This document shows, piece after piece, positions 32,001 to 57,749 of a stretch of DNA of 64,000 nucleotides. The position numbers and the translations under genes are program-made. Numbering within the stretch: position 1 is the first letter of the stretch; every line of letters begins with the position of its first letter. The DNA is from a virus. The notes beneath the pieces were generated by a model. That model was not told the origin of the DNA, searched no databases, and worked only from the letters and a program-made list of their open reading frames with translations. Where the stretch lies: IMG/VR virus record IMGVR_UViG_3300025728_000009, positions 1 through 64,000 of that record; one strand, 5' to 3'.

Positions 32001-33053
32001 AGTGTTGACTCTAGCATTGTGTTCATTTATTCAACTCCCCAATCTGTTCATTAATCCGTGTAATAGTCCATTCAGCACTTCTCAAATCTTCATGTGCTCG
32101 CTGAAGTTGTCCTTCAAGTTTCTTCAATACTGCTGTCTTACTCACATCACTCCCTTTAAGCTTAGCCCACTTCTTTGTACACTGATACCCTACAAACACA
32201 ACACCCTCATAATCATCTTTAGCGTATTCATGCACAAATTCGTAATCATTCAGATTGCAGATGAACTCTAAGTCGAATGACTCCGCATTCACATATTTCG
32301 AATATTCACGAGCCAAGCCTTCGTGTGTGAAGATGTTTGTGTCTTCTTTTCCATCCTTGAAAGGCCAATAGTTGTATGTGTCGATTAGAACTATGTCACC
32401 GTGTCTGTCTGTACGAGCTACCGCACGTCTGTCTCTGCACCAATACGGATCTGATGATGGACCAAGGTTAGGTTTCCAAGTGTATTGGAAGTAATCGCCG
32501 TCTTTGATCTGTGTCATTTCAAACTCCTAAGCCAATTAATTTTACTCTCTTCAGTCTCACCATTCAATTCAGTCCAGACATTGACAATCTCTTCAGTTCT
32601 CATGTCACAGAAATCTTTTGGTGGTGACATAATTAGAGTCTTATCTGTCCAATTGAGAATACCACCTTCATAGCGATCTTGCCAATAAAACATTTTACCT
32701 TCGCTGTAATCAGCTATACCGTGACAATGATAACCATCCATGCTTAGGTAAGTTAGATTAGGATAGAGTTTATTAAGAACAAGGAAAGCTAGCCATTGAG
32801 GTTTATCATCGCTTGGAAATAGTGATTGTTCTACAAAGTGATAGGCTAGATCGCTCATTGTTTAATTCCTGCAATTTTGAATTCCACATTCTCAGCCACA
32901 GCCTTAAACCTGTCAAGCACTGACATAAATTGATACCCTCCAGCTTTGCTCCACACGAGGACAACAGCATTTCCTAGATGTTTGCGTAAAACGTAGGGTT
33001 CGAAGTTTTCAATTGAGTACATTTAGTTTTCCTCTGTGTTTTCTGTTGCTTGA

Positions 33054-33087
33054 ATTTTAGACAAAAGAAAAGGGCCTGTCAAGGCCC
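33054..33087 (-). promoter_or_regulatory. Fused terminator/promoter TTGACA-17-TAAAAT
   Basis: Minus strand GGGCC-TTGACA-GGCCC-TTTTCTTTT. Confidence 0.85.
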
Positions 33088-33091
33088 AATA

Positions 33092-34309
33092 TCACGCAAG
33101 GTTGAAAATTTCTTTAATCTTAGGCTTTTCAAGCACCTCCAAGCTCATGCACTCAAACATCCCACCCTTAAACGGCACCAAAGGGTTGTAGTGAAACTCC
33201 CTGAATTCCTTGTGTAGTTCGGCTTCCATCTCTAAGACTGAAAGATGTTTGTCTTGCACTGTTGACAGGATTTCAACATCGTAGTACCTTCCTATCGACC
33301 ACATCCTTTCCCTCATATTGAAGGATCTACCAATCTTGATAAAAGATTCCTCTTTATTATACAAGTTTATGAGGTATAGATTGTCATCTTCGTCTGCACG
33401 ACCTTCGTATTCACCATACCCGTTATTTACGGCTGAGGATTTATATCTGCAAGACCCACCACAACCCCTACCTCTCAGGAAGTTGTTAATGGACGTGGAG
33501 TTTTCATGCCCTTCTGCACACAACCAATCAAACTTACTTGTCTGCCTGATATCATCAGTGTTGAAACCAATAAATGTAAAGCCTTGTGCAGTTACAAGGT
33601 TATTCATCTTAAGTTCATATTGTGCTGAAGTTAAAGGTGGATTATCTTTACATCGACAAGGTAGATTACCAGCCTTAAGGCTTGCATATGAGGCATTAAA
33701 AACACCATTGCAAAGACCAGCCTTTGTATACTCATCTTCTTTACAAATAGGACAGCTAACAAACCATCTTTCATACCTACCAGTGGAACCGGGCACAGGA
33801 TCTCTTTCAAACGTCGTACCGCTAACAAAGGAGCCTGTAGATAAAAACAAATCAATATAGTGTTCTATAGGTTTTACTTTGTTTTTAGATATGAGTCCAT
33901 CAAGACCAACACACCTTTTATTGTCATCTGAGCCGCCTAAGAATGAATTTATCCTCGGAAGAGTTACTACATCATTAGTTCTTAAGTCTACAGCCTTGAT
34001 CTTAGTATTAATCTTACCGTTATATTCCCCATCCCAACCTATGAATTTATAATCCCTCTTAATGCACTCCCGTATTACCAATATCTTATTTTGTTCTTCT
34101 GTTAGGTACGGAGTTCTGGCACAAAGACAAGAACATGATCCTTTACTTAGGCTGTGTGCATGAGAGGTAATTGATCCTAGTGGGAATAGTTCAGTATCTA
34201 AAGAGCACTTACTACAAGAGACAATCCACTTATCTTTCCCTATCTTACTAACTAATGTCATTATTGAATCTCTTACTTCAAACTGATCACCTTCATTGCG
34301 TACTGTCAT
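33092..34309 (-). CDS. Zn-ribbon-repeat protein with C-terminal GIY-YIG-like (T5orf172/MUG113) nuclease domain
   Basis: Two internal repeats W.VSC..C...L..G...C.C...LT..Q...F.G; C.EGH...GRGC; C-terminal LYLI...FIKIGRS...R...E.ELH...E. Confidence 0.75.
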   Translation of the reverse strand: MTVRNEGDQFEVRDSIMTLVSKIGKDKWIVSCSKCSLDTELFPLGSITSHAHSLSKGSCSCLCARTPYLTEEQNKILVIRECIKRDYKFIGWDGEYNGKINTKIKAVDLRTNDVVTLPRINSFLGGSDDNKRCVGLDGLISKNKVKPIEHYIDLFLSTGSFVSGTTFERDPVPGSTGRYERWFVSCPICKEDEYTKAGLCNGVFNASYASLKAGNLPCRCKDNPPLTSAQYELKMNNLVTAQGFTFIGFNTDDIRQTSKFDWLCAEGHENSTSINNFLRGRGCGGSCRYKSSAVNNGYGEYEGRADEDDNLYLINLYNKEESFIKIGRSFNMRERMWSIGRYYDVEILSTVQDKHLSVLEMEAELHKEFREFHYNPLVPFKGGMFECMSLEVLEKPKIKEIFNLA

Positions 34310-34371
34310 ACTTATTCTTTAATTCTCTTATGTATTTAGTTATTATTTATATTAGATTTATATTATTCAAC

Positions 34372-34820
34372 TGAGTTTAGATAACTCCAAGCGAGATTAC
34401 CCCTACCCATAGCCATAAGAGAAACAATATTCTCCCATAAGACTTAGGTAGGGGTCACGCTTGAAATTATCCTCGCTCTTTCCTGTGAAGCAGCTTTACG
34501 CTGTATTCAACTTGAGATGAGAAAAATAGTCTTTCGACTCTACTAATATGCACAGGTACATTTAGTAGCCAAGGAAGGTCTTTAATAAGATTACCTTCTC
34601 GAATCACTTTTATAGGCTCTTACAGCCCCGCTAACAAGACCTGATTCTTTCGACTAGTCTTTGCTATGTGTTAGCTCCCCGGTTAGCTTTAAGCTCTGGC
34701 TGCCCGTTGCAGTTGTGTCCGCCACCAGAACCGATGACATTCTAATGTGCTGTCGCTTAGAAGAAGGTCATGTATAAATATTACGCCTTTATTTCCTCAA
34801 TTGCAACCTTTCTGACATGA
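34372..34820 (-). ncRNA. Candidate ~450-nt highly structured RNA (unassigned family)
   Basis: ORF-free; at least 8 consecutive hairpins, GAAA tetraloops, 92-nt terminal hairpin whose irregular pairs are G-U only on the - strand. Confidence 0.65.
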
Positions 34821-35835
34821 TATGTTTTTATAGCAAATCAAGAAAGCGATAACCTAGAGGAATACCTAATCTTCCCCCTCCAACACCCTCAACACCTCTT
34901 CAAGATCCTCCCTACTCAGCCACAGAGGATGCTCATCATTAGTGTGATAGATGATAATTGCATTACCTACCTTGTCCCAATCTGTACCGTTGTCTGTGTT
35001 CATTGCATATCCTGCCAAATCTTCTTCAAATGTTTCTTCTTCACATCAGGGAATGCTTGGATAATGTCCTCAAGAAAAACCCTGTGAAAAGACTTAAAGT
35101 GTAATTCAGCTACAAACTGTTCCACTTCTTCAGTTAACGCATCAAATTTCTCTTGTTTCATTTCACTCTCCGAATATTAGCCCACTGTTCAGCACCAAAC
35201 TGATCACGCTTAAACTCACCAGATATCTCGCCCTCAAAGGTAATGTCAAGCTTCATGTTTGTTCGTACTGACTTCTTGTAAACAGATTGAAAGGTTGTCC
35301 CTACAGATGCATAATCTGATACCCAAGGACTGCTTTCTTCACGAATCTCGGACATGTTGATTGGCTCAACCGCAAAATCTTCTGGCAAGCTTTCAATCCA
35401 AGCGATAAATTCTTTCTTGTTCATCACTCTTCTCCCTTCCAAATCACATTAAACCTCGGACAAACATCAGACAGCTTCCTCACATACGTATCATAATCCA
35501 TAAAATTCCCTACGATAAAGAAAATCCCTTGGGAGTTCATCACTACCATTTGATTCTCCCCAAGCTTAAGTTTCTCTCCAGAAGAGGTGTCAATAATTTT
35601 AAATTTCTTTTTCATTCTTTACTCTCCACAAATACACCTTGTCGACTAGGTTTACTAGACAGAGAACGATAATTCTCATCGATAGCAACCATGAACTGTC
35701 CACCTTCCATGTAAAAGCCATCGTCAAGGGTTTCAATCTCCCAAGTCAACCCTTCGAACTTCCAATCCATTTCTACCCCAACATCTGGTACGAATTTGTA
35801 AGTCATGATTTTGTCTCCTCAATTAATGTAGGCCA

Positions 35836-37583: not shown

Positions 37584-39302
37584 GTGGGCGAAACAAGTTC
37601 GCTGTCATTCAATCGCCATTGGGCTTTAAGATCAAAAACTAAATTGGAGAGTAGCTTGTCCTATTTCAAAAAGCTAAAGGAGCGAGAAGTGGAAGTTTTT
37701 AATAAAGAAACAGTTGATGACGTTAAGAAGTATACGTCTGTAGATGCACCTGAGCGTGGTATTCGTAAAGCTACACTTGAGCGATTCGGCGTTAAGGTTG
37801 CACTGTCTGAGAAAGATGGTAAGACACCAGAAGCTTTCTACTTCCCTTCATACAATCAGAAAGGGAAAGTTGTAGGCTACACAAAACAAGATGTAACTAA
37901 AGGAAAGGATGAGAAAGGCCATTGGACGGCTGTTGGCAGCGTTTCTATTGGCAATAAGTTGTTTGGCCAAGAAGTTGCTGAAAACACTAACCGCAAGCGT
38001 ACCAATCTGATTACGACCGAAGGCCAATGGGACTGTCTTAGTGTATGGCAAGCAGCAGTGGAGAACGTAAAAGGTACGAAGTTTGAAGGTCTTGAACCAC
38101 TAGTTGTCTCTATTCCGCTTGGCACTGCTAACGCTGTAGAAGCTTTGCTTCACAACGAGGAATACGTAAAGAGCCATGATTCTTTGACTATTTTCTTTGA
38201 TGATGATTACTGCACACCAGCAGAGACAAAGAAAGGGGTTATGAAGGGCCACGAAGCTCGTGAAGCTGTTGCTAGTGCATTAGTAGGTTCAGGGCTGTCT
38301 TTGATGACGGTAGTTCCGGCTGATGGCTTTAAGGATGCTTCTGATTACTTGCAAGCTAATCGTTCTGAAGATTTGGCTAAACTTATTCAGTTTGGTAAAC
38401 GTGCATACTCTGCTGAAAAGATTGTTAAAGCATCTGACATTAGTATTGAGGAATTGCTTGAGCCACGTCCCGAGGGCGTGTACGTTAACGAGTTTCCAAA
38501 GTTGATGGATAAACTGCATGGTTTTCGTATGCGTGAACTTGTACTATTGACAAGTCCTAGTGGTGTGGGCAAATCCACTGTGACATCCATTTTTGCTAGT
38601 TCTTTTATGGAATCTGGTGAAAAGCTTGGAATGATCTATCTGGAAGAATCAAACAAAGAGACAATGCAACGACTGATTGCAGCTAAACTGAAAGTAAGTT
38701 ATCTGAAGTTTAAAGATAAACCTCTTGAGTGTGCAACACTGGAGCAGATCACACAGGCTCGAAATGAAATTGTAGATAATGATTTGCTTGTTATGTTAGG
38801 CCACTTTGGCAGTTTGCCAGTTAGTGAACTGATGAACAAAGTAAAACATATGCACTTGGTTGAAGGTTGTAAATACATTCTTATTGACCACTTGAGTATG
38901 GTTGTATCTGGGAGTCATGTAACAGATGAACGCAAAGAATTGGATATTGTAATGACTGAGTTGGCAGCATTCTGTGCTGCAAATGATGTTTGTGTGATTG
39001 CAGTATCTCACATTAACCGAAGTGCAGCAGAGCAATTCAAAGCACCGAAAGGTAATGAAGACAAACCGTTTTGGGTTAAGGTGACAAAGGAAATGATGCG
39101 TGGTAGTGCGGCTCTTGAACAATTGAGCTTTGTTATCATTGGTTTGGAACCACAGATTATGCCAGACCGCTCACGCGGTAATGTTCGACTAACTGTTCTG
39201 AAGAATCGACCTTGGAGTTACTTGGGAGTTGCGGATGAATTTACTATTGATGAAAACACTTGGGCAGTATTGCTTGCTCAGGAAGTTCCAGATGATTTTT
39301 GA
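37584..39302 (+). CDS. T7 gp4-like primase-helicase (true start probably downstream of 37584)
   Basis: TOPRIM TEGQWD, FFDDD, KDASD; SF4 helicase SGVGKST, LEE, IDHL, VSH, RGS..LEQ, KNR. Confidence 0.92.
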   Translation: MGETSSLSFNRHWALRSKTKLESSLSYFKKLKEREVEVFNKETVDDVKKYTSVDAPERGIRKATLERFGVKVALSEKDGKTPEAFYFPSYNQKGKVVGYTKQDVTKGKDEKGHWTAVGSVSIGNKLFGQEVAENTNRKRTNLITTEGQWDCLSVWQAAVENVKGTKFEGLEPLVVSIPLGTANAVEALLHNEEYVKSHDSLTIFFDDDYCTPAETKKGVMKGHEAREAVASALVGSGLSLMTVVPADGFKDASDYLQANRSEDLAKLIQFGKRAYSAEKIVKASDISIEELLEPRPEGVYVNEFPKLMDKLHGFRMRELVLLTSPSGVGKSTVTSIFASSFMESGEKLGMIYLEESNKETMQRLIAAKLKVSYLKFKDKPLECATLEQITQARNEIVDNDLLVMLGHFGSLPVSELMNKVKHMHLVEGCKYILIDHLSMVVSGSHVTDERKELDIVMTELAAFCAANDVCVIAVSHINRSAAEQFKAPKGNEDKPFWVKVTKEMMRGSAALEQLSFVIIGLEPQIMPDRSRGNVRLTVLKNRPWSYLGVADEFTIDENTWAVLLAQEVPDDF

Positions 39303-39311
39303 GGATCAAAA

Positions 39312-39953
39312 ATGGCTGAAGATTTAAGCGGAAGAAAATATAATCGTTGGACTATAATTAGCCTTGCAGAGCGGAAAGGAAATCGGGCATATTGGAATTG
39401 TATATGTGATTGTGGGAAAGAAAAAGTAGTCCGTGGGGATCAAATCAAAGATGGTCGCTCACAGTCTTGTGGTTGCCTCAGAGCTGAACGCTCCTACAGG
39501 ACACATGGAATGTGGAAGAGTAAGATTTACAGGGTTTGGGGCTCAATGGTTTCAAGAACTACAAATCCAAACGATCCAGCGTGGCCCTACTACGGTGGAA
39601 TTGGTTGTGGATTAGACCAAGAGGAATGGAAGCAATTTGAAAATTTCTACAGGGATATGGGAGAAAGCTATAAAGAAGGGTTGACTTTAGAACGAGAAGA
39701 TCCTAAACTTGGTTACTCAAAAGAGAACTGTGTTTGGGAAACATGGAAAGTTCAAAGTTTCAACAAGAAAATGGATAAACGTAATAAATCTGGACGTACT
39801 GGTGTTGTGCTTATTGAGGCTACTGGTAAATGGAAAGCACGTATAGGTTTTGAAGGTAAAGACATCAATTTAGGTTACTATGCAACCTTCGAAGAGGCTT
39901 GTGCTGCAAGAGCCGAAGGTGAGCTTAAATATTTTGGAAGAACAAAGGAGTAA
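39312..39953 (+). CDS. HNH-like homing endonuclease with AP2 domain
   Basis: W.C.CDCG, SCGC, YGG.G, W..FE.F..DMG, N.SG.TGV, LG.Y...EEA..AR. Confidence 0.85.
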   Translation: MAEDLSGRKYNRWTIISLAERKGNRAYWNCICDCGKEKVVRGDQIKDGRSQSCGCLRAERSYRTHGMWKSKIYRVWGSMVSRTTNPNDPAWPYYGGIGCGLDQEEWKQFENFYRDMGESYKEGLTLEREDPKLGYSKENCVWETWKVQSFNKKMDKRNKSGRTGVVLIEATGKWKARIGFEGKDINLGYYATFEEACAARAEGELKYFGRTKE

Positions 39954-39956
39954 AAA

Positions 39957-42395
39957 GTGGATATTACTTGGGACCGGGAAACAACAGGTCTTTTGAATCA
40001 AGAGGCTATCGATTACACCACCAGCCCATTCAAGCTGAAAGAGACTTTCAAGACTCATTGCACTGTTGTGGAAGAACATCAGACTGGTAAGATTATTGCC
40101 TTCTATGATGGTCCTGAATATACTCTTGATGGTCGCCGTTACGAAGAGGTGATTGAAGGGCAGACTTACATTCTTGAAAATTACCAACCGATTGAGTTTG
40201 AGAAACGATCTATTGCTGAGTTTAAGGATTACGTCCTAAACAACCCACTACATAAAGTGGTGGCTCACAACCAGATCAACTTTGACTTAATGGTTGGTAA
40301 GATTGAAGAAGATATGGACTTCACCATTGAACAAGATACTTGGTGTGGTAAGCCTGTATTGTTTGAGGATACACTTGTAATCAGTAAAGCGCTCAACCCA
40401 GATCGTCTTGGTGGTCACAGCTTGGATTCCTTGTCTGAGAAGGCTGGACTTCGTAAGTATTCGTTTCGTAAACACATGCATGAGTCTATTCGATTCAAGC
40501 ACTTTGCAGCGGACATGCTATTTTATTGCATCATCGACGTGCTGGCTAATACCAAAGTTTACAAGATGTTGGAAGTTGAGAAAGGTGATTGGGATTGGTC
40601 AGACGCTATTAGCCTTGAGAAGGCTGTTGCTGAGATTATCACTCGACAGGAACACCGAGGGTTTGACTTCAAGACAGAACGAGCTATTGAACTTGTTCGA
40701 GATTTGGATATCAAACTTGAGGCTTTGCGTAGTGAAGTAGAACCTGTGTTGCCGCCTAAGCCTTTGGCAAAGACACGAATGGACTTCTACACACCTAGTG
40801 AAAAGCAGTTCAAGAAGTCGGGCGAACTGAATGAAAACATTAAGAAGTTTGTAGCTAAACACGAAGGAACAATCAGCGAAGATAATGTTGCAACAATATT
40901 TGGTAAAGAATACTCTCTGCCAATGCCTGCTGTACCATTGTTGACAGAAGTTCCGTCTACTTTGAAAGACACGACTCACATTAAAGAGTGGTTGGTTTCT
41001 AAGTTTGGCTGGAATCCCTCAGCATGGAAAGAGCGGGATTTGACGTGTGATGCAAAGAAGAATCGTCTTACACAAGAAAAGTTTGAAGCTGCTGTAGATC
41101 GGTATGTTGACCAAACATTAGCAAGTCCTTTTTGCAAGTATCGTCTTGAACACCTTAACCTTAATAAGAACAATATTAAGGCAAAGTTATTGGCAAAAGG
41201 TTGTGCTAAAAGCTTCAAAGTTCTAACCAACCCCACACTGACGGTAGGACAGGAGAAAGAGATTTGCCCCGGACTTATTGCGCTAGAAAGTAGCTTTCCA
41301 CACGCAAGAAAGCTTGCTGACTTCCTTACTTATAGTCACCGCCGTAATAGCATTCTTGGTGGTGGTTATGATCCAGAAGAGGATGATGAGGAGTTTGAAA
41401 GCGGGTTTATGCCGAACGTGAGGGAAGATGGACGTATTCCAACACCAGCAGATACTTGCGGGGCTGGGACCAGCAGATTCAAGCATCGTTTAGTAGCCAA
41501 CATTCCTCGTAATTCCTCGCTTTATGGCGAAGAAATGCGTAGTTTGTTTGGTGTTGGTAAAGGATATGTACAACTTGGTTACGATTTCGACTCGTTAGAA
41601 GCAAAAATAGAAAGCTCGTATGTTTTTCGTTATAAGGGCGGACCTGAGTACGGTATCAGTCTCACAGCAGAGAAGCCGAATGACTGTCACTCTGTACTAG
41701 CACGGAGGATTACTGAGATTATCGGTAAGGAGTTTCCTCGTGGAAGTGCAAAATCTGTTAAATACGGTTGCAGTTACAACGCACAGGTTGCCCGAGTAGC
41801 TAAAATTGTTGGCTGTGATCTTGAAACAGCTCAAATCATCTTTGATGAATTTTGGACTTTGGCTAACCCTCTCAAAGAACTCAAAGATCGTATGCAACAA
41901 TATTGGGAAACAACAGGACAGAAGAAGTTCCTTCTTGGGATTGATAAGCGTAAACTTCCAATTCGCTCAAAAGGCAATGTGATCAACAGTGCCTTCCAGT
42001 CAGCAGGCGTAATTTGTGCAAAACGAGCGATGGTTATTCATGATCGCAAGCTTAAAGCCGAAGGAATGTCTGTAGATTTCTTTAAGGATGATTGGAAGAA
42101 CAAGAAATATTGCCAGCAAATGATTGCTTACCACGATGAGGCACAATTAGAGTTGACACGAGAGCTGGTTAAGTTTAAACTCTTTGACACAGAGAAAGAA
42201 GCGAAGGAATTTTCTGAAGAAGGAAAAATCTGGAGCGATGTTGGACATGCAAAAGACGGACGTTTCTTCCGTTCATGGTGTCGAGCAGGTGAACTTGCAG
42301 CAGAATCTGTAAAAGAAGCTGGACAATACTATAAATTGAACGTAGAATTGACAGCAGGCTATGTGATTGGAAGCGGATGGGATAATTGTCACTAA
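39957..42395 (+). CDS. Family A DNA polymerase with 3'-5' exonuclease
   Basis: DRETTG, AHN..FD, HSL exonuclease motifs; DFDSLE (A), R..AK...YG (B), YHDE (C). Confidence 0.93.
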   Translation: MDITWDRETTGLLNQEAIDYTTSPFKLKETFKTHCTVVEEHQTGKIIAFYDGPEYTLDGRRYEEVIEGQTYILENYQPIEFEKRSIAEFKDYVLNNPLHKVVAHNQINFDLMVGKIEEDMDFTIEQDTWCGKPVLFEDTLVISKALNPDRLGGHSLDSLSEKAGLRKYSFRKHMHESIRFKHFAADMLFYCIIDVLANTKVYKMLEVEKGDWDWSDAISLEKAVAEIITRQEHRGFDFKTERAIELVRDLDIKLEALRSEVEPVLPPKPLAKTRMDFYTPSEKQFKKSGELNENIKKFVAKHEGTISEDNVATIFGKEYSLPMPAVPLLTEVPSTLKDTTHIKEWLVSKFGWNPSAWKERDLTCDAKKNRLTQEKFEAAVDRYVDQTLASPFCKYRLEHLNLNKNNIKAKLLAKGCAKSFKVLTNPTLTVGQEKEICPGLIALESSFPHARKLADFLTYSHRRNSILGGGYDPEEDDEEFESGFMPNVREDGRIPTPADTCGAGTSRFKHRLVANIPRNSSLYGEEMRSLFGVGKGYVQLGYDFDSLEAKIESSYVFRYKGGPEYGISLTAEKPNDCHSVLARRITEIIGKEFPRGSAKSVKYGCSYNAQVARVAKIVGCDLETAQIIFDEFWTLANPLKELKDRMQQYWETTGQKKFLLGIDKRKLPIRSKGNVINSAFQSAGVICAKRAMVIHDRKLKAEGMSVDFFKDDWKNKKYCQQMIAYHDEAQLELTRELVKFKLFDTEKEAKEFSEEGKIWSDVGHAKDGRFFRSWCRAGELAAESVKEAGQYYKLNVELTAGYVIGSGWDNCH

Positions 42396-46648: not shown

Positions 46649-47242
46649 GTGATCCCATCACAAGCTGACATAGACAAACGTAAAAAGAACTTAGAAAAAC
46701 TCTTAAAGCAAATTGATAAAGAGACAGGGAAGTCAATTGAGTGTAAGATGCTTACTGTTGTTCGTGGCGCTATCCGTAAATCTTGGATGTCAAGTCCTAC
46801 AAAACTCTCTTATCTAGAGCTGGGCATTGAACCAGACATGGACGACACAAACCGTAGGAAGTGGAAATGCCAGTGCGAGATTTGCAAAGAATGGTTTAAG
46901 CTTGCTGATATTCAGATCGACCACATTGATGGGCATAATACTTTCACACAGAAGTCAGATTTTGAAAGTTATTTTGACAGCATCTTGATGGTAGGGTATG
47001 ATGGACTCCAGCGGCTTTGTATAGATTGCCATGCTGTGAAGACTTATGCTGACGCTCACAGCCTTACTTTCGAGCAAGCTGAGAAGGAGAAAGGTGTAAT
47101 TAAGATTATTAACCTTACAGCAGCAGCACAGAAGAAGTGGCTGAAAGATAAGGGTGTTAAACCGGGATCTAATGAAGAGATTAGACGTAATCAAATTCGT
47201 AATGTTTTAGAACAGGAGAAAGATAATGATCGATGTAATTAG
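46649..47242 (+). CDS. HNH endonuclease
   Basis: CEIC...QIDHI...LQRLC..CH..KT. Confidence 0.8.
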   Translation: MIPSQADIDKRKKNLEKLLKQIDKETGKSIECKMLTVVRGAIRKSWMSSPTKLSYLELGIEPDMDDTNRRKWKCQCEICKEWFKLADIQIDHIDGHNTFTQKSDFESYFDSILMVGYDGLQRLCIDCHAVKTYADAHSLTFEQAEKEKGVIKIINLTAAAQKKWLKDKGVKPGSNEEIRRNQIRNVLEQEKDNDRCN

Positions 47243-55769: not shown

Positions 55770-57749
55770 ATGGAATTCAAACGCTTCAGTTCACTAGAGA
55801 ATAGCTACCGTCAGAACCTCATTGACAAAGTTCAATATGAAGGTAAAGATGGTGGTCTGTGGATGGCTACCGAAAAGCTACACGGCTGCTTTCAGGATAA
55901 GACCAAAGTAACTCTACCTGATGGCAGTTATAAGACTATTCAAGAAATTGTAGAGTCCAAATACAGTGGTGAGGTTCTGGGTGTAGATAAAGAAGGCAAG
56001 CTTGTCCCAACCAAAGTTGTTAACTGGTATGAAAACGGGAATACAACTGAGTGGCTTAAAGTAACCTTCCAGACTTATGGTGGTAAGGGCGGTAACAGTC
56101 GTGCTGTAAAATGTACACCAAACCATAAGTTCTTTTCTCAAGGACAATATCTACCAATGTCGGAGTTGGTTGTTGGAGACTCTGTGGAGTACACCTATTC
56201 CGGTTGCTCTTTGAGTTTTATTCAAGAGCAAGTTCTCATTGGTAAGATGCTAGGAGATGGTTCTCTGACAAACTCCTCTGTGGCTTTTGGTCATAAAGAG
56301 TTGCACGAGGACTATACTGATTTTACCCTTAAATGTCTTGGTTCCTTGGCAGGTAAACGTCAGGCTGATACAATGTCGGGATATGGCACAACCATCAGCC
56401 GTGGTCGTAGTATCTCTACAGAAGAAATTGATAAGCTGTTTGAATCGTGGAGTAAGTCTGTTGGTCATGTGCCCAAACTCACTTTGACGCCAATTAGTCT
56501 TGCTTTCTGGTACTTGGATGATGGCAGTGTTTGCTTGAATGACAATCAGAAACCTCGTGCAAGCTTTGCTACCTGTGGTTTTACAAAAGAGTCTTGTCTT
56601 AACTTGAAAGCAAGCCTTGCAAATCTGGGTATTACTTCAGAAGTGAATGGCGAAGAGGGGCGTTTGAGGGTTACTTTGTCAGCAGACTCAACAGATTTGT
56701 TGTTCTCTTATATTTGCAACTTGGTTCCTGAATCTATGCAGTACAAGTTGCCCCCACAGTTTAGAATTCAAGGGTCTGGTGCAGGTTTTGTGGAACAAGC
56801 TACCCACGATTTCACATCTCGTAAATCTTATGCTGTTATTAAAAGTATTGAACAAGTCTGTGAAGATAAACAGCGGTACGATATCGAGACTGAAACTCAC
56901 AACTACTTTGCCAACAATCTGCACGTACATAATTGTAACTTTAGCTTCTGGTGTGATGGTAAGGAAGTAAAGTTTGCATCTCGTACACAGTTTGTTGATG
57001 GGACATTCTTTAATTGTCAAGCCGTTATGAATCAGTATTCCCAAGGCGTACTTGATGGATTCCCATACTTCGCTAAAGAAGGTCAGATACTGGTAATTTA
57101 TGGGGAGTTGTTTGGTGGTAACATTCAGAAAGAAGTAGAGTACGGAGAGAAAGACTTTAAAGCTTTCGATGTTGTAATTGACGGACAACCCGTTCAAAAA
57201 CAATCGGCAATTAATATTGCAGACTCTTGTGGTATTGAGTTTGTCCCTGTCATCCATACTGGTACATTAGCCGAGTGTTTAACTCTGTCAAACACGTTTA
57301 AGTCCACATTGACACCAGAGGGTTACAAAGAAGAGAACACGTCTGAAGGCTTGGTAATTGAGCCTGTAGAGCCTAATTGGTTTAACAATGGAAGTCGTAT
57401 CTACTTCAAAAATAAGACAGAAGGGTTTAGTGAGAAGAAACGTAAACCAAAAGAACATATTGTGTTTGAGTTGTCTGATGAAGAATCAGAGTTGATGAAT
57501 GAGCTTCTGACTTACAACACTATTCAACGTGTGTCTAATGTAATCAGCAAGATTGGTCAAGTAACCAATAAAGACTTTGGTAAGATTCTTGGCCTCACTA
57601 CACAAGACTTGCTTGAAGAGTTCACCAAGGAAACTGAACAAGATCCTAAGCAGATTGCTGAAAGTAATTGGAAATCTTTCCTGAAGCTGCTACAATCAGA
57701 AGTAGGTAAAGAGGTTCGTAGTCAATTTGTTGTGGCTTTGGAGGATTGA
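55770..57749 (+). CDS. RNA ligase 2 (Rnl2 family) containing an intein
   Basis: Exteins join as EKLHG|CNFS (motif I); GELFG, IQKEV.Y, AFD, EGLVI, KNK. Confidence 0.9.
   Translation: MEFKRFSSLENSYRQNLIDKVQYEGKDGGLWMATEKLHGCFQDKTKVTLPDGSYKTIQEIVESKYSGEVLGVDKEGKLVPTKVVNWYENGNTTEWLKVTFQTYGGKGGNSRAVKCTPNHKFFSQGQYLPMSELVVGDSVEYTYSGCSLSFIQEQVLIGKMLGDGSLTNSSVAFGHKELHEDYTDFTLKCLGSLAGKRQADTMSGYGTTISRGRSISTEEIDKLFESWSKSVGHVPKLTLTPISLAFWYLDDGSVCLNDNQKPRASFATCGFTKESCLNLKASLANLGITSEVNGEEGRLRVTLSADSTDLLFSYICNLVPESMQYKLPPQFRIQGSGAGFVEQATHDFTSRKSYAVIKSIEQVCEDKQRYDIETETHNYFANNLHVHNCNFSFWCDGKEVKFASRTQFVDGTFFNCQAVMNQYSQGVLDGFPYFAKEGQILVIYGELFGGNIQKEVEYGEKDFKAFDVVIDGQPVQKQSAINIADSCGIEFVPVIHTGTLAECLTLSNTFKSTLTPEGYKEENTSEGLVIEPVEPNWFNNGSRIYFKNKTEGFSEKKRKPKEHIVFELSDEESELMNELLTYNTIQRVSNVISKIGQVTNKDFGKILGLTTQDLLEEFTKETEQDPKQIAESNWKSFLKLLQSEVGKEVRSQFVVALED
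55887..56933 (+). mobile_element. 349-aa intein with LAGLIDADG homing endonuclease
   Basis: Starts CFQD, CTPNH block B, LIGKMLGDG and LAFWYLDDG, YDIET, ends VHN followed by extein Cys. Confidence 0.93.

Follow-up and report, generated by a model that had tools for sequence, protein, structure and literature searches.

The virus record IMGVR_UViG_3300025728_000009 holds a phage genome of 91,285 nucleotides (nt), rated as complete in IMG/VR, and its first 64,000 nt constitute the stretch analyzed here, referred to as the window. The primase/helicase of this phage is 74–79% identical to its counterparts in Pseudaeromonas phage KLEP7 and Pseudomonas phage vB_PsaM_M1, the latter being classed in the Ounavirinae (Felix-O1-like myoviruses). 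A leftward-running cluster of small early genes contains a free-standing homing endonuclease gene on the minus strand (33092..34309). Upstream of this open reading frame (ORF) lies an ORF-poor gap of 556 nt (34310-34865), which encodes a real structured RNA on the minus strand. The RNA and the nuclease, together with a promoter candidate and a terminator, form the cassette considered in this work.

The only ORF of the gap (34467..34607, 46 amino acids (aa), GTG start) is treated as spurious; once it is discounted, the gap is the largest non-coding stretch of the genome in a greedy ORF call, and the runner-up measures 283 nt. A protein-coding remnant is rejected as an explanation of the gap, because this ORF is so short and the substitutions in the RNA stems are compensatory. 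The folding energy of the minus strand is −159.2 kcal/mol versus −128.1 ± 5.8 kcal/mol in 100 shuffled sequences, none of which folds as well (z −5.39), and the plus strand reaches z −2.69. The RNA proper spans about 34771..34373 (−) and is followed by an A/U-rich tail to 34310; its last helix closes at about 34373, 63 nt ahead of the ATG at 34309.

The fold was derived from three sequences of one RNA subtype, termed type A: the window and two homologous loci, L036 and L038 (related loci are numbered with L). RNAalifold predicts 125 base pairs for this set, of which 21 show compensatory double changes. In the refined model, where a pseudoknot was added by eye and one doubtful long-range helix was dropped, there are 124 pairs with 97.8% of the alignment cells paired, and 24 pairs carry double changes, compared with 8.6 ± 2.2 in shuffles (0/500 reach 24) and just 0–3 when the partners are slid by 1–3 columns. 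Although a set of three sequences renders the shuffle control lenient, the case is convincing in view of the slid controls and of how many double changes arose independently. The pseudoknot itself covaries: GCUA (34687..34684) pairs with UAGC (34666..34663) in the window, GCUG with CAGC in L036, and GCGA with UCGC in L038. The minus strand has about 14 G-U pairs, which would read as C-A on the plus strand, and thus the fold belongs to the minus-strand transcript. The preliminary description of the window had proposed a structured element co-oriented with the nuclease and ending about 60 nt before its start codon, and the fold energy, the covariation, the strand-specific pairs and the measured distance all bear this out. 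Of the bounds that it gave for the locus, the one at 33092 marks the nuclease stop, not an edge of the RNA.

Parts of the cassette

Transcription of the cassette would start from a candidate sigma-70-type promoter at 34778..34806 (−), composed of TTGCAA (34806..34801), a 17-nt spacer and TAATAT (34783..34778). Both hexamers and the spacing are kept in the window, L005, L045, L041, L038 and L036, and the sequence of the spacer varies. The site is missing from the promoter scan because it scores 8/12 to the consensus, below the threshold of 9/12. The start of the RNA is predicted near 34771, right at H1, a 5′-terminal hairpin (34735..34770, −) with a 9-bp stem, a conserved internal loop (UCUAA / A.AUU) and a 2-bp tip, which in three of four sequence variants carries a tetraloop following the familiar GNRA rule. 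Across eight distinct H1 sequences, representing all three RNA subtypes, 92% of the cells are paired and the covariation score is 0.679 versus 0.193 ± 0.053 in shuffles (0/500 reach it). A mini-ORF, AUG-NNN-UUC-UUC-UAA, overlaps H1 at 34756-34770 (−) and begins about at the predicted transcript start. It has AUG in the window, L005, L044 and L045 and GUG in L041, is absent in L036, L038 and L051, and is probably a by-product of the hairpin.

Behind H1 follows the type A body of 413 nt (34323..34735, −), the module that is exchanged between phages. Along the minus strand, it comprises H2 (34731..34693), the pseudoknot, a multi-branch domain with a GAAA hairpin (34687..34569), H4 (34568..34540), another GAAA hairpin (34539..34528), H7 (34503..34491) and the long 3′ hairpin H8 (34478..34373). 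Besides the two GAAA tetraloop hairpins, there are several other GNRA-type loops, and the loops are strongly conserved across the type A alignment. The H8 hairpin carries CCUAAG (34448..34443) and UAUGG (34411..34407), which we take to resemble the 11-nt receptor of GAAA tetraloops. The A/U-rich tail (34310..34372, −) extends from the last helix to the nuclease start and includes a 27-nt block, TATAAATCTAATATAAATAATAACTAA, identical in the window, L036 and L038; the most A/T-rich 200 nt of the neighborhood are found at 34200-34399 (GC content 0.285). The tail also holds a weak promoter-like site, TTGAAT-17-AATAAT (34370..34342, −). A T4-type late promoter in the tail was considered and rejected, as TATAAATA is not enriched in the genome (6 sites vs about 10 expected). 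No terminator-like site was found between the RNA and the nuclease ORF in the promoter/terminator scan.

The nuclease gene has an ATG start and encodes 405 aa, with four CapR repeats and a C-terminal T5orf172 domain. CapR (Pfam PF21817) matches in four stretches at 1.1e-34, and the corresponding CxxC...CxCxC motifs are visible in the translation. The match to T5orf172 (Pfam PF10544, residues 312-376) is marginal, at 20.3 bits vs a cut-off of 20, and the match to phrog_681 (‘endonuclease’) covers residues 16-399 at 2.2e-65. Homologues are present in 319 cultured-phage records, at identities of up to 37% and in up to 6 places per record; no close relatives were found in IMG/VR, and no solved structures related by sequence. 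The patchy multi-copy distribution among phages and the decayed alleles in related loci provide a homing context for the gene. Its product is predicted to be a free-standing homing endonuclease of the ordinary, protein-guided kind, and it adds a member to a known family. In the passages available from Barth et al. (2023, PMC10448857), CapR is described as a CxxC...CxC zinc finger present in 95 of 229 T5orf172 homing endonucleases, the genes of which sit at boundaries of genetic exchange. The nuclease resembles such ICP1-type enzymes (PMC10448857, PMC8096241, in the passages available) in its CapR repeats, its T5orf172 domain and its position at an exchange boundary. It differs from them in its low identity (≤37%) to the homologues of cultured phages, where the gene follows its neighbor at 0 and 30 nt, with no such upstream gap, in both of the homologous loci examined (the best two); the passages available from PMC10448857 do not mention an RNA partner.

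The cassette is closed by a hairpin terminator, GGGCCTTGACAGGCCC followed by a T run (hairpin 33087..33072, with the T run 33087..33062, −), which starts 4 nt past the stop codon (33092-33094). Its loop, TTGACA, together with TAAAAT located 17 nt further (33059..33054), also forms a promoter-like site scoring 11/12, and this overlapping promoter reads as one that may serve the next gene. The same terminator hairpin follows different nuclease genes in the four loci examined (window, L005, L036 and L038). The motif is single-copy, with one occurrence in the window at up to 3 mismatches; a looser genome scan returns three candidate hairpins with a TTGAC loop, of which one is a true copy of the motif. 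In the preliminary description, the nuclease had been taken for a zinc-repeat T5orf172 enzyme of 405 aa with a terminator within a few bases of its stop, and the RNA, nuclease and terminator for a self-contained unit; the domain matches and the position of the hairpin confirm the former points, and the latter is upheld by the recurrence of the unit in related phages.

Related loci and exchange between phages

The comparison is based on 26 related loci fetched via the primase and on further loci from exact-pattern scans. The IMG/VR scan with the two GUCGAAAGA hairpins returned 11 loci, including two true homologues (L036 and L038), and another viral pattern scan returned two hits, both true. 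With the H1-loop pattern, all six metagenome contigs and all 11 IMG/VR hits are true, most of the latter being repeats of known contigs, and the two hits in bacterial genomes are chance matches in metagenome-assembled genomes with no RNA behind them. Scans with a type C body pattern and a two-loop type A pattern yielded only loci already known. No RNA homologue was found in 50,697 cultured-phage records (blastn with the window stretch and type C), and megablast with 20 kb gave no match. Neither KLEP7 nor M1 contains the H1 pattern, and the type A nhmmer profile finds nothing in L002, L003, L013 and L018-L026, despite primases 61–96% identical. The whole cassette is accessory in these phages. 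An ‘empty site’, consisting of promoter, H1 and terminator without the insert, does not occur among the pattern hits, and rearrangement in the early regions of L002, L003 and L013 is too extensive for such a site to be defined there. The cassette-less relatives carry large ORFs with no Pfam match in their early regions, encoding 446 aa in L013 (4514-5854, −) and 427 aa in L002 (5138-6421, −).

The RNA appears to represent a new and rare family, within which three subtypes can be told apart by sequence. None of the 4227 families of Rfam 15 reaches its gathering score in the 64 kb (cmscan). At E up to 10, the 2.4 kb of 32900-35300 give four chance-level matches to unrelated families (E 1.3–8.9), and at E up to 1, five loci carrying types A, B and C give nothing relevant; group I and group II introns, GIR1, HEARO, ROOL, GOLLD and self-cleaving ribozymes are presumably among the Rfam models. 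ARAGORN detects nothing on the element, and no description of the RNA was found in the open-access literature searched. The RNA of the window is 92.5% identical to that of L036 over 416 nt and 82% identical to that of L038 over 538 nt, and these three sequences form type A, with 414–426 nt from the end of H1 (ATCG) to the nuclease start. This distance is about 358 nt in type B (the L005 group, L046 and the truncated contigs L009, L027 and L044) and 486–509 nt in type C (L045, L041/L055 and the truncated L051). Common to all types are the promoter, H1, the H2 stem, which fully covaries between the types, and a UUAAA junction; the receptor-like motif in the long 3′ hairpin is recognized by eye in types A and C. 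Alignment of the types by eye, aided by single-sequence folds, matched H1, H2, the UUAAA junction and the receptor-bearing 3′ hairpin, and the middle is unalignable. The fold of type B is modestly better than its shuffles (z −1.64).

In all seven distinct loci with readable downstream DNA, the RNA is directly followed, in the same orientation, by a nuclease gene of the GIY-YIG superfamily or its remnant; contigs L009, L027, L044 and L051 end ahead of this gene and are uninformative about it. The RNA family is present before five different nuclease genes. Besides the 405-aa enzyme of the window, there is a 324-aa protein in L005, with three CapR repeats and a T5orf172-like domain (26% identical to the window nuclease; phrog_681, 1e-53). 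The same gene has a 347-nt internal deletion in L046, a locus otherwise 99.85% identical to L005. The gene of L036 encodes 257 aa with an N-terminal GIY-YIG domain (PF01541, 1.5e-10) and an I-TevI-like C-terminal part, and the one of L038 encodes 219 aa with a winged-helix N-terminus and a GIY-YIG C-terminus, both matching phrog_314. In L045, a bare GIY-YIG protein of 126 aa matches the catalytic part of phrog_314 with residues 2-94 (9e-7) and has no recognizable DNA-binding domain; in L041 (and L055), a gene of this type has a stop after 51 aa, with the remainder readable in another frame. One RNA subtype, type A, therefore heads three nuclease architectures (window, L036 and L038), and the RNA is intact beside a broken nuclease in two of the seven loci (L046 and L041). 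At the class level, the association is strict, as the RNA is seen solely ahead of GIY-YIG-superfamily nuclease genes. The co-occurrence of RNA and nuclease holds for the superfamily and is not tied to the T5orf172 enzyme.

The window and L005 have in common only 34732..35003 (88%) and 33052..33087 (36/36 nt), with everything between replaced. The window and L036, in turn, share the RNA alone, and the identity ends at both of its borders. In L041 and L045, type C is near-identical over a stretch that opens right behind H1 and ends a little ahead of the nuclease, with different H1, promoter and nuclease sequences, and in L051 an L036-type H1 is joined to a type C body. Contigs of four of the 20 sequencing runs listed (X10, X9, X16 and X17) were also placed on the window, with uncovered stretches such as the nuclease ORF not counted. 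A contig of X10 covers 34323-34735 with 1 difference in 413 nt and unlike flanks on both sides, and a contig of X9 covers 34347-34737 with 2 differences. Two RNA-library contigs lie wholly inside the body (X16, 34443-34703; X17, 34523-34702) and, being contigs, carry no information on ends, strand or level. These exchange patterns and sharp borders define four slots: the promoter with H1, the body, the nuclease ORF and the terminator. The linkers which join them are short and conserved, namely AUCG after H1, the A/U tail and the terminator hairpin. The alignments show slots that have evidently been exchanged independently of each other between related Felix-O1-like phages. As the same RNA is found before unrelated nucleases, it is a swappable partner module rather than a guide for this particular enzyme.

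A comparable organization is provided by the PeSLs, composite promoter-terminator motifs through which modules are shuffled in T4-type phages, according to the passages available from two reports (PMC2839356, PMC4122927). The terminator hairpin overlapping an early promoter and the short conserved motif at the exchange border are like those of the PeSLs. The PeSLs, however, are described in the same passages as repeated many times in hyperplastic regions, whereas the motif in the present phage, a Felix-O1-like one, is single-copy.

Possible roles of the RNA

The locus is tentatively read, with a probability of about 40%, as a modular homing-endonuclease cassette in which the RNA serves as a portable cis-acting leader. 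In this scenario, an early sigma-70-type promoter would start the message, with the stable hairpin H1 coming first. The RNA body of about 410 nt would be carried on the same message as whichever nuclease fills the slot, and it would act in cis, by protecting the 5′ end and/or by setting the amount or timing of the nuclease. Breaks made by the nuclease and repaired via the short linkers (H1, tail and terminator) would drive the swapping of the slots, and the terminator hairpin would end the cassette and double as the next promoter. A single transcription unit is suggested by the conserved promoter upstream, the lack of a terminator between RNA and nuclease, and the same terminator after each nuclease. 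The break-driven shuffling fits the location of nuclease genes at exchange boundaries, as reported in the passages available from PMC10448857. The preliminary description had also considered a homing nuclease acting on this conserved element, possibly an origin; the sharp exchange borders at both ends of the body agree with the homing part, and an origin with iterons was not seen.

The leaders of T-even homing endonuclease genes (I-TevI, I-TevII, I-TevIII, segB and mobE) form hairpins of tens of nt that mask the ribosome-binding site (RBS) and contain a nested late promoter. Like them, the present RNA is structured, would belong to the nuclease's own message, lies directly upstream and is portable between nuclease genes. 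Unlike them, it is 410–510 nt long, with a pseudoknot and many helices, and TATAAATA is not enriched in this genome. The masking of the RBS was assessed in six loci with RNAduplex, by pairing the region −25..+6 against the upstream RNA and comparing the result with 300 shuffles. The window reaches z −2.2 (3% of the shuffles as good), and the other five loci range from −0.8 to +1.3, the start used for L038 probably not being the true one. The marginal signal of the window arises from UUCUCUUAUG (34414-34423, −, the apical 3′ strand of the long hairpin), which is perfectly complementary to CAUAAGAGAA in the tail (34323-34332); in L036 the two segments pair less strongly, and in L038 their pairing is interrupted.

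Several observations weigh against a cis-acting leader. The RNA does not pair consistently with the ribosome-binding region of the nuclease (null in five of six loci), and thus the classic RBS-masking mechanism is not supported. Its 410–510 nt, pseudoknot, GNRA loops and receptor-like motif are far beyond the needs of known nuclease leaders. The RNA bodies move without the nuclease, and the RNA is intact beside two broken nucleases, though both breaks look recent. The X16 and X17 RNA-library contigs cover only parts of the body, as would be expected of a stable RNA separate from the message, although the libraries may contain carried-over DNA.

Such a separate RNA could be the product of an independent trans-acting noncoding RNA gene, an alternative that is possible but more doubtful than the leader. 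Its DNA would be a homing site or adjoin one, and the nucleases would have settled downstream. By cutting rival alleles, they would let types A, B and C diversify and the bodies convert between phages. The RNA has its own conserved promoter candidate, a 5′-terminal hairpin and strongly conserved loops, its three diverged body types lie between the same flanks, and near-identical bodies with sharp borders are found beside different nucleases. Survival of the RNA next to a decayed nuclease in two of seven loci points the same way, as do the nuclease genes at exchange boundaries (Barth et al. 2023, PMC10448857, in the passages available) and, weakly, the confinement of the RNA-library contigs to the body. 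However, the four collection scans, in which many loci are repeats, contain no copy without the nuclease slot or beside another kind of gene, and the RNA always has the same orientation and spacing to the nuclease. The two are not separated by a terminator, and the RNA is missing from close relatives, so it does not fulfill a core function. Far less probable is a transcription-primed replication origin, where the promoter, a structured primer RNA and an A/T-rich unwinding region would act together and the nucleases would be attracted to the origin. RNA II of ColE1 is an example of a structured primer RNA, and the Odn nuclease of ICP1 targets the PLE origin. In agreement with this model, the promoter and the structured RNA are followed by the most A/T-rich 200 nt nearby (GC 0.285), close to the primase/helicase (2.7 kb) and beside the divergent early promoters. 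An origin with iterons was nevertheless rejected, as the repeats consist only of two- or three-copy short families, none of them clustered in 34310-34865, and no iterons or multi-copy direct repeats are present. Moreover, the element is absent from relatives whose primases are 92–96% identical, the tail runs straight into a translated ORF, and three unrelated body sequences would need the same replisome.

It is also unlikely that the RNA is a ribozyme or an intron-like element that processes the transcript, by GIR1-like 5′ trimming or capping or by self-splicing, with the body as a discrete mobile unit. Precedents exist: the c-di-GMP-controlled group I ribozyme of Clostridioides difficile splices itself out of a leader, and GIR1 trims or caps the 5′ end of a nuclease message. 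The body is indeed a discrete 413-nt module with sharp ends, and its pseudoknot, GNRA loops and receptor-like motif are such as occur in large ribozymes. It is located directly 5′ of a homing-endonuclease ORF, as is GIR1, the lariat-capping ribozyme of twin-ribozyme introns, in the passages available from PMC2219692. Both are pseudoknotted folds just ahead of such an ORF, but GIR1 measures about 190 nt, is related to group I, resides inside a eukaryotic rDNA intron and has a known reaction. Even the permissive Rfam searches (E up to 10 on the 2.4 kb, up to 1 on five loci) bring up no group I, group II, GIR1 or self-cleaving class for the present RNA. A group I intron in particular was rejected: H1 pairs with upstream and not downstream sequence, no conserved U-G is seen by eye at the 5′ border, the helix order is not P3-P4-P6-P7-P3′-P8-P7′, and the pseudoknot encloses no P4-P6-like domain. 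There are no exons or interrupted host gene and no joined (spliced) form among the contigs compared, and the terminal base is not fixed, the base ahead of the conserved terminator being U, A and U in three loci that share a GGGCC start. In the collaborative homing reportedly described by Bonocora and Shub in 2009, an ORF-less group I intron and a neighboring free-standing endonuclease cooperate in cyanophage psbA. There, too, a structured RNA and a separate adjacent nuclease gene travel together, but a proven self-splicing intron lies in a protein gene, while the present RNA interrupts no gene and shows none of the intron features looked for. Very improbable is a ribonucleoprotein (RNP) in which the RNA guides or scaffolds a GIY-YIG-type catalytic domain. 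Its main support is the 126-aa nuclease of L045, which lacks a recognizable DNA-binding domain and follows the largest RNA subtype, along with the strict adjacency to a GIY-YIG-superfamily nuclease (7/7 loci) and the precedent of HEARO, which was once merely nuclease-associated and proved to be the guide of IscB. Like HEARO, the RNA is large and structured, and it directly precedes a nuclease ORF within a mobile genetic setting. The HEARO/IscB omega-RNA, however, is tied to one protein family (the RuvC + HNH IscB) and supplies the guide, whereas the present nuclease slot is interchangeable and holds proteins with their own DNA-binding domains, and the RNA has no Rfam match. A fixed pairing of the OMEGA/IscB kind was rejected, as type A serves three architectures, each with its own DNA-binding module (four CapR repeats, the I-TevI-like C-terminal part or the winged helix), and the CapR + T5orf172 family is widespread without such an RNA (the upstream gap was checked in two homologues). 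In addition, the type A alignment has no obviously variable unpaired guide-like segment. The dedicated RNP for the T5orf172 enzyme put forward in the preliminary description is not sustained by these observations, by the exchange of the RNA bodies independently of the protein, by the nucleases decayed beside an intact RNA, by the lack of an RNA match among cultured phages or by the cultured homologues without such a gap. Improbable, if less so than such an RNP, is that the RNA is a partner of the GIY-YIG fold itself and that minimal nucleases of this type depend on it for scaffolding, licensing or targeting. Among the enzymes compared, the 126-aa protein of L045, which follows the largest RNA subtype, would be the best case of such an RNA-partnered nuclease. 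A close second to this partnership may be that the RNA belongs to a new class of ribozymes and matures the message of the nuclease.

Significance and genomic surroundings

Homing endonucleases shape the mosaics of phage genomes, and their expression must be tightly held. If a large RNA with tertiary structure is the standard swappable front end of their genes, selfish nucleases would have a hitherto unrecognized level of control or partnership. If the partnership between the RNA and the GIY-YIG nucleases is true, it would be the first RNA-dependent homing system on this nuclease superfamily. Nuclease-associated structured RNA as such is already known; the size, the tertiary motifs, the three subtypes and the slot-wise exchange are unusual here. 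The new large fold combines a pseudoknot, several GNRA loops and a receptor-like motif and exists in three subtypes, and, to our knowledge, the large RNAs of bacteria and phages that lack a known function number no more than a handful. The precedent of HEARO illustrates that a nuclease-associated RNA of unclear role can prove mechanistically central. The exchange slot by slot is unusually clean, with borders defined to within a few bases, which makes homing and co-conversion testable in crosses.

Felix-O1-like phages are usually rich in tRNA genes, and ARAGORN finds none within the 64-kb window. Homing endonucleases of several families are abundant in the genome. An HNH homing endonuclease gene (39312-39953, +; phrog_374, 1.4e-70) is located exactly between the genes of the primase/helicase (37584-39302) and the DNA polymerase (39957-42395); in KLEP7 and M1, the HNH genes are found after the polymerase instead. 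A second HNH endonuclease is encoded among the replication genes (46649-47242, +; phrog_1985, 1.7e-50). An RNA ligase of 659 aa (55770-57749, +) matches phrog_548 at residues 378-654 and a LAGLIDADG homing-endonuclease family at residues 152-330, and the latter match may represent an intein or an inserted endonuclease domain.

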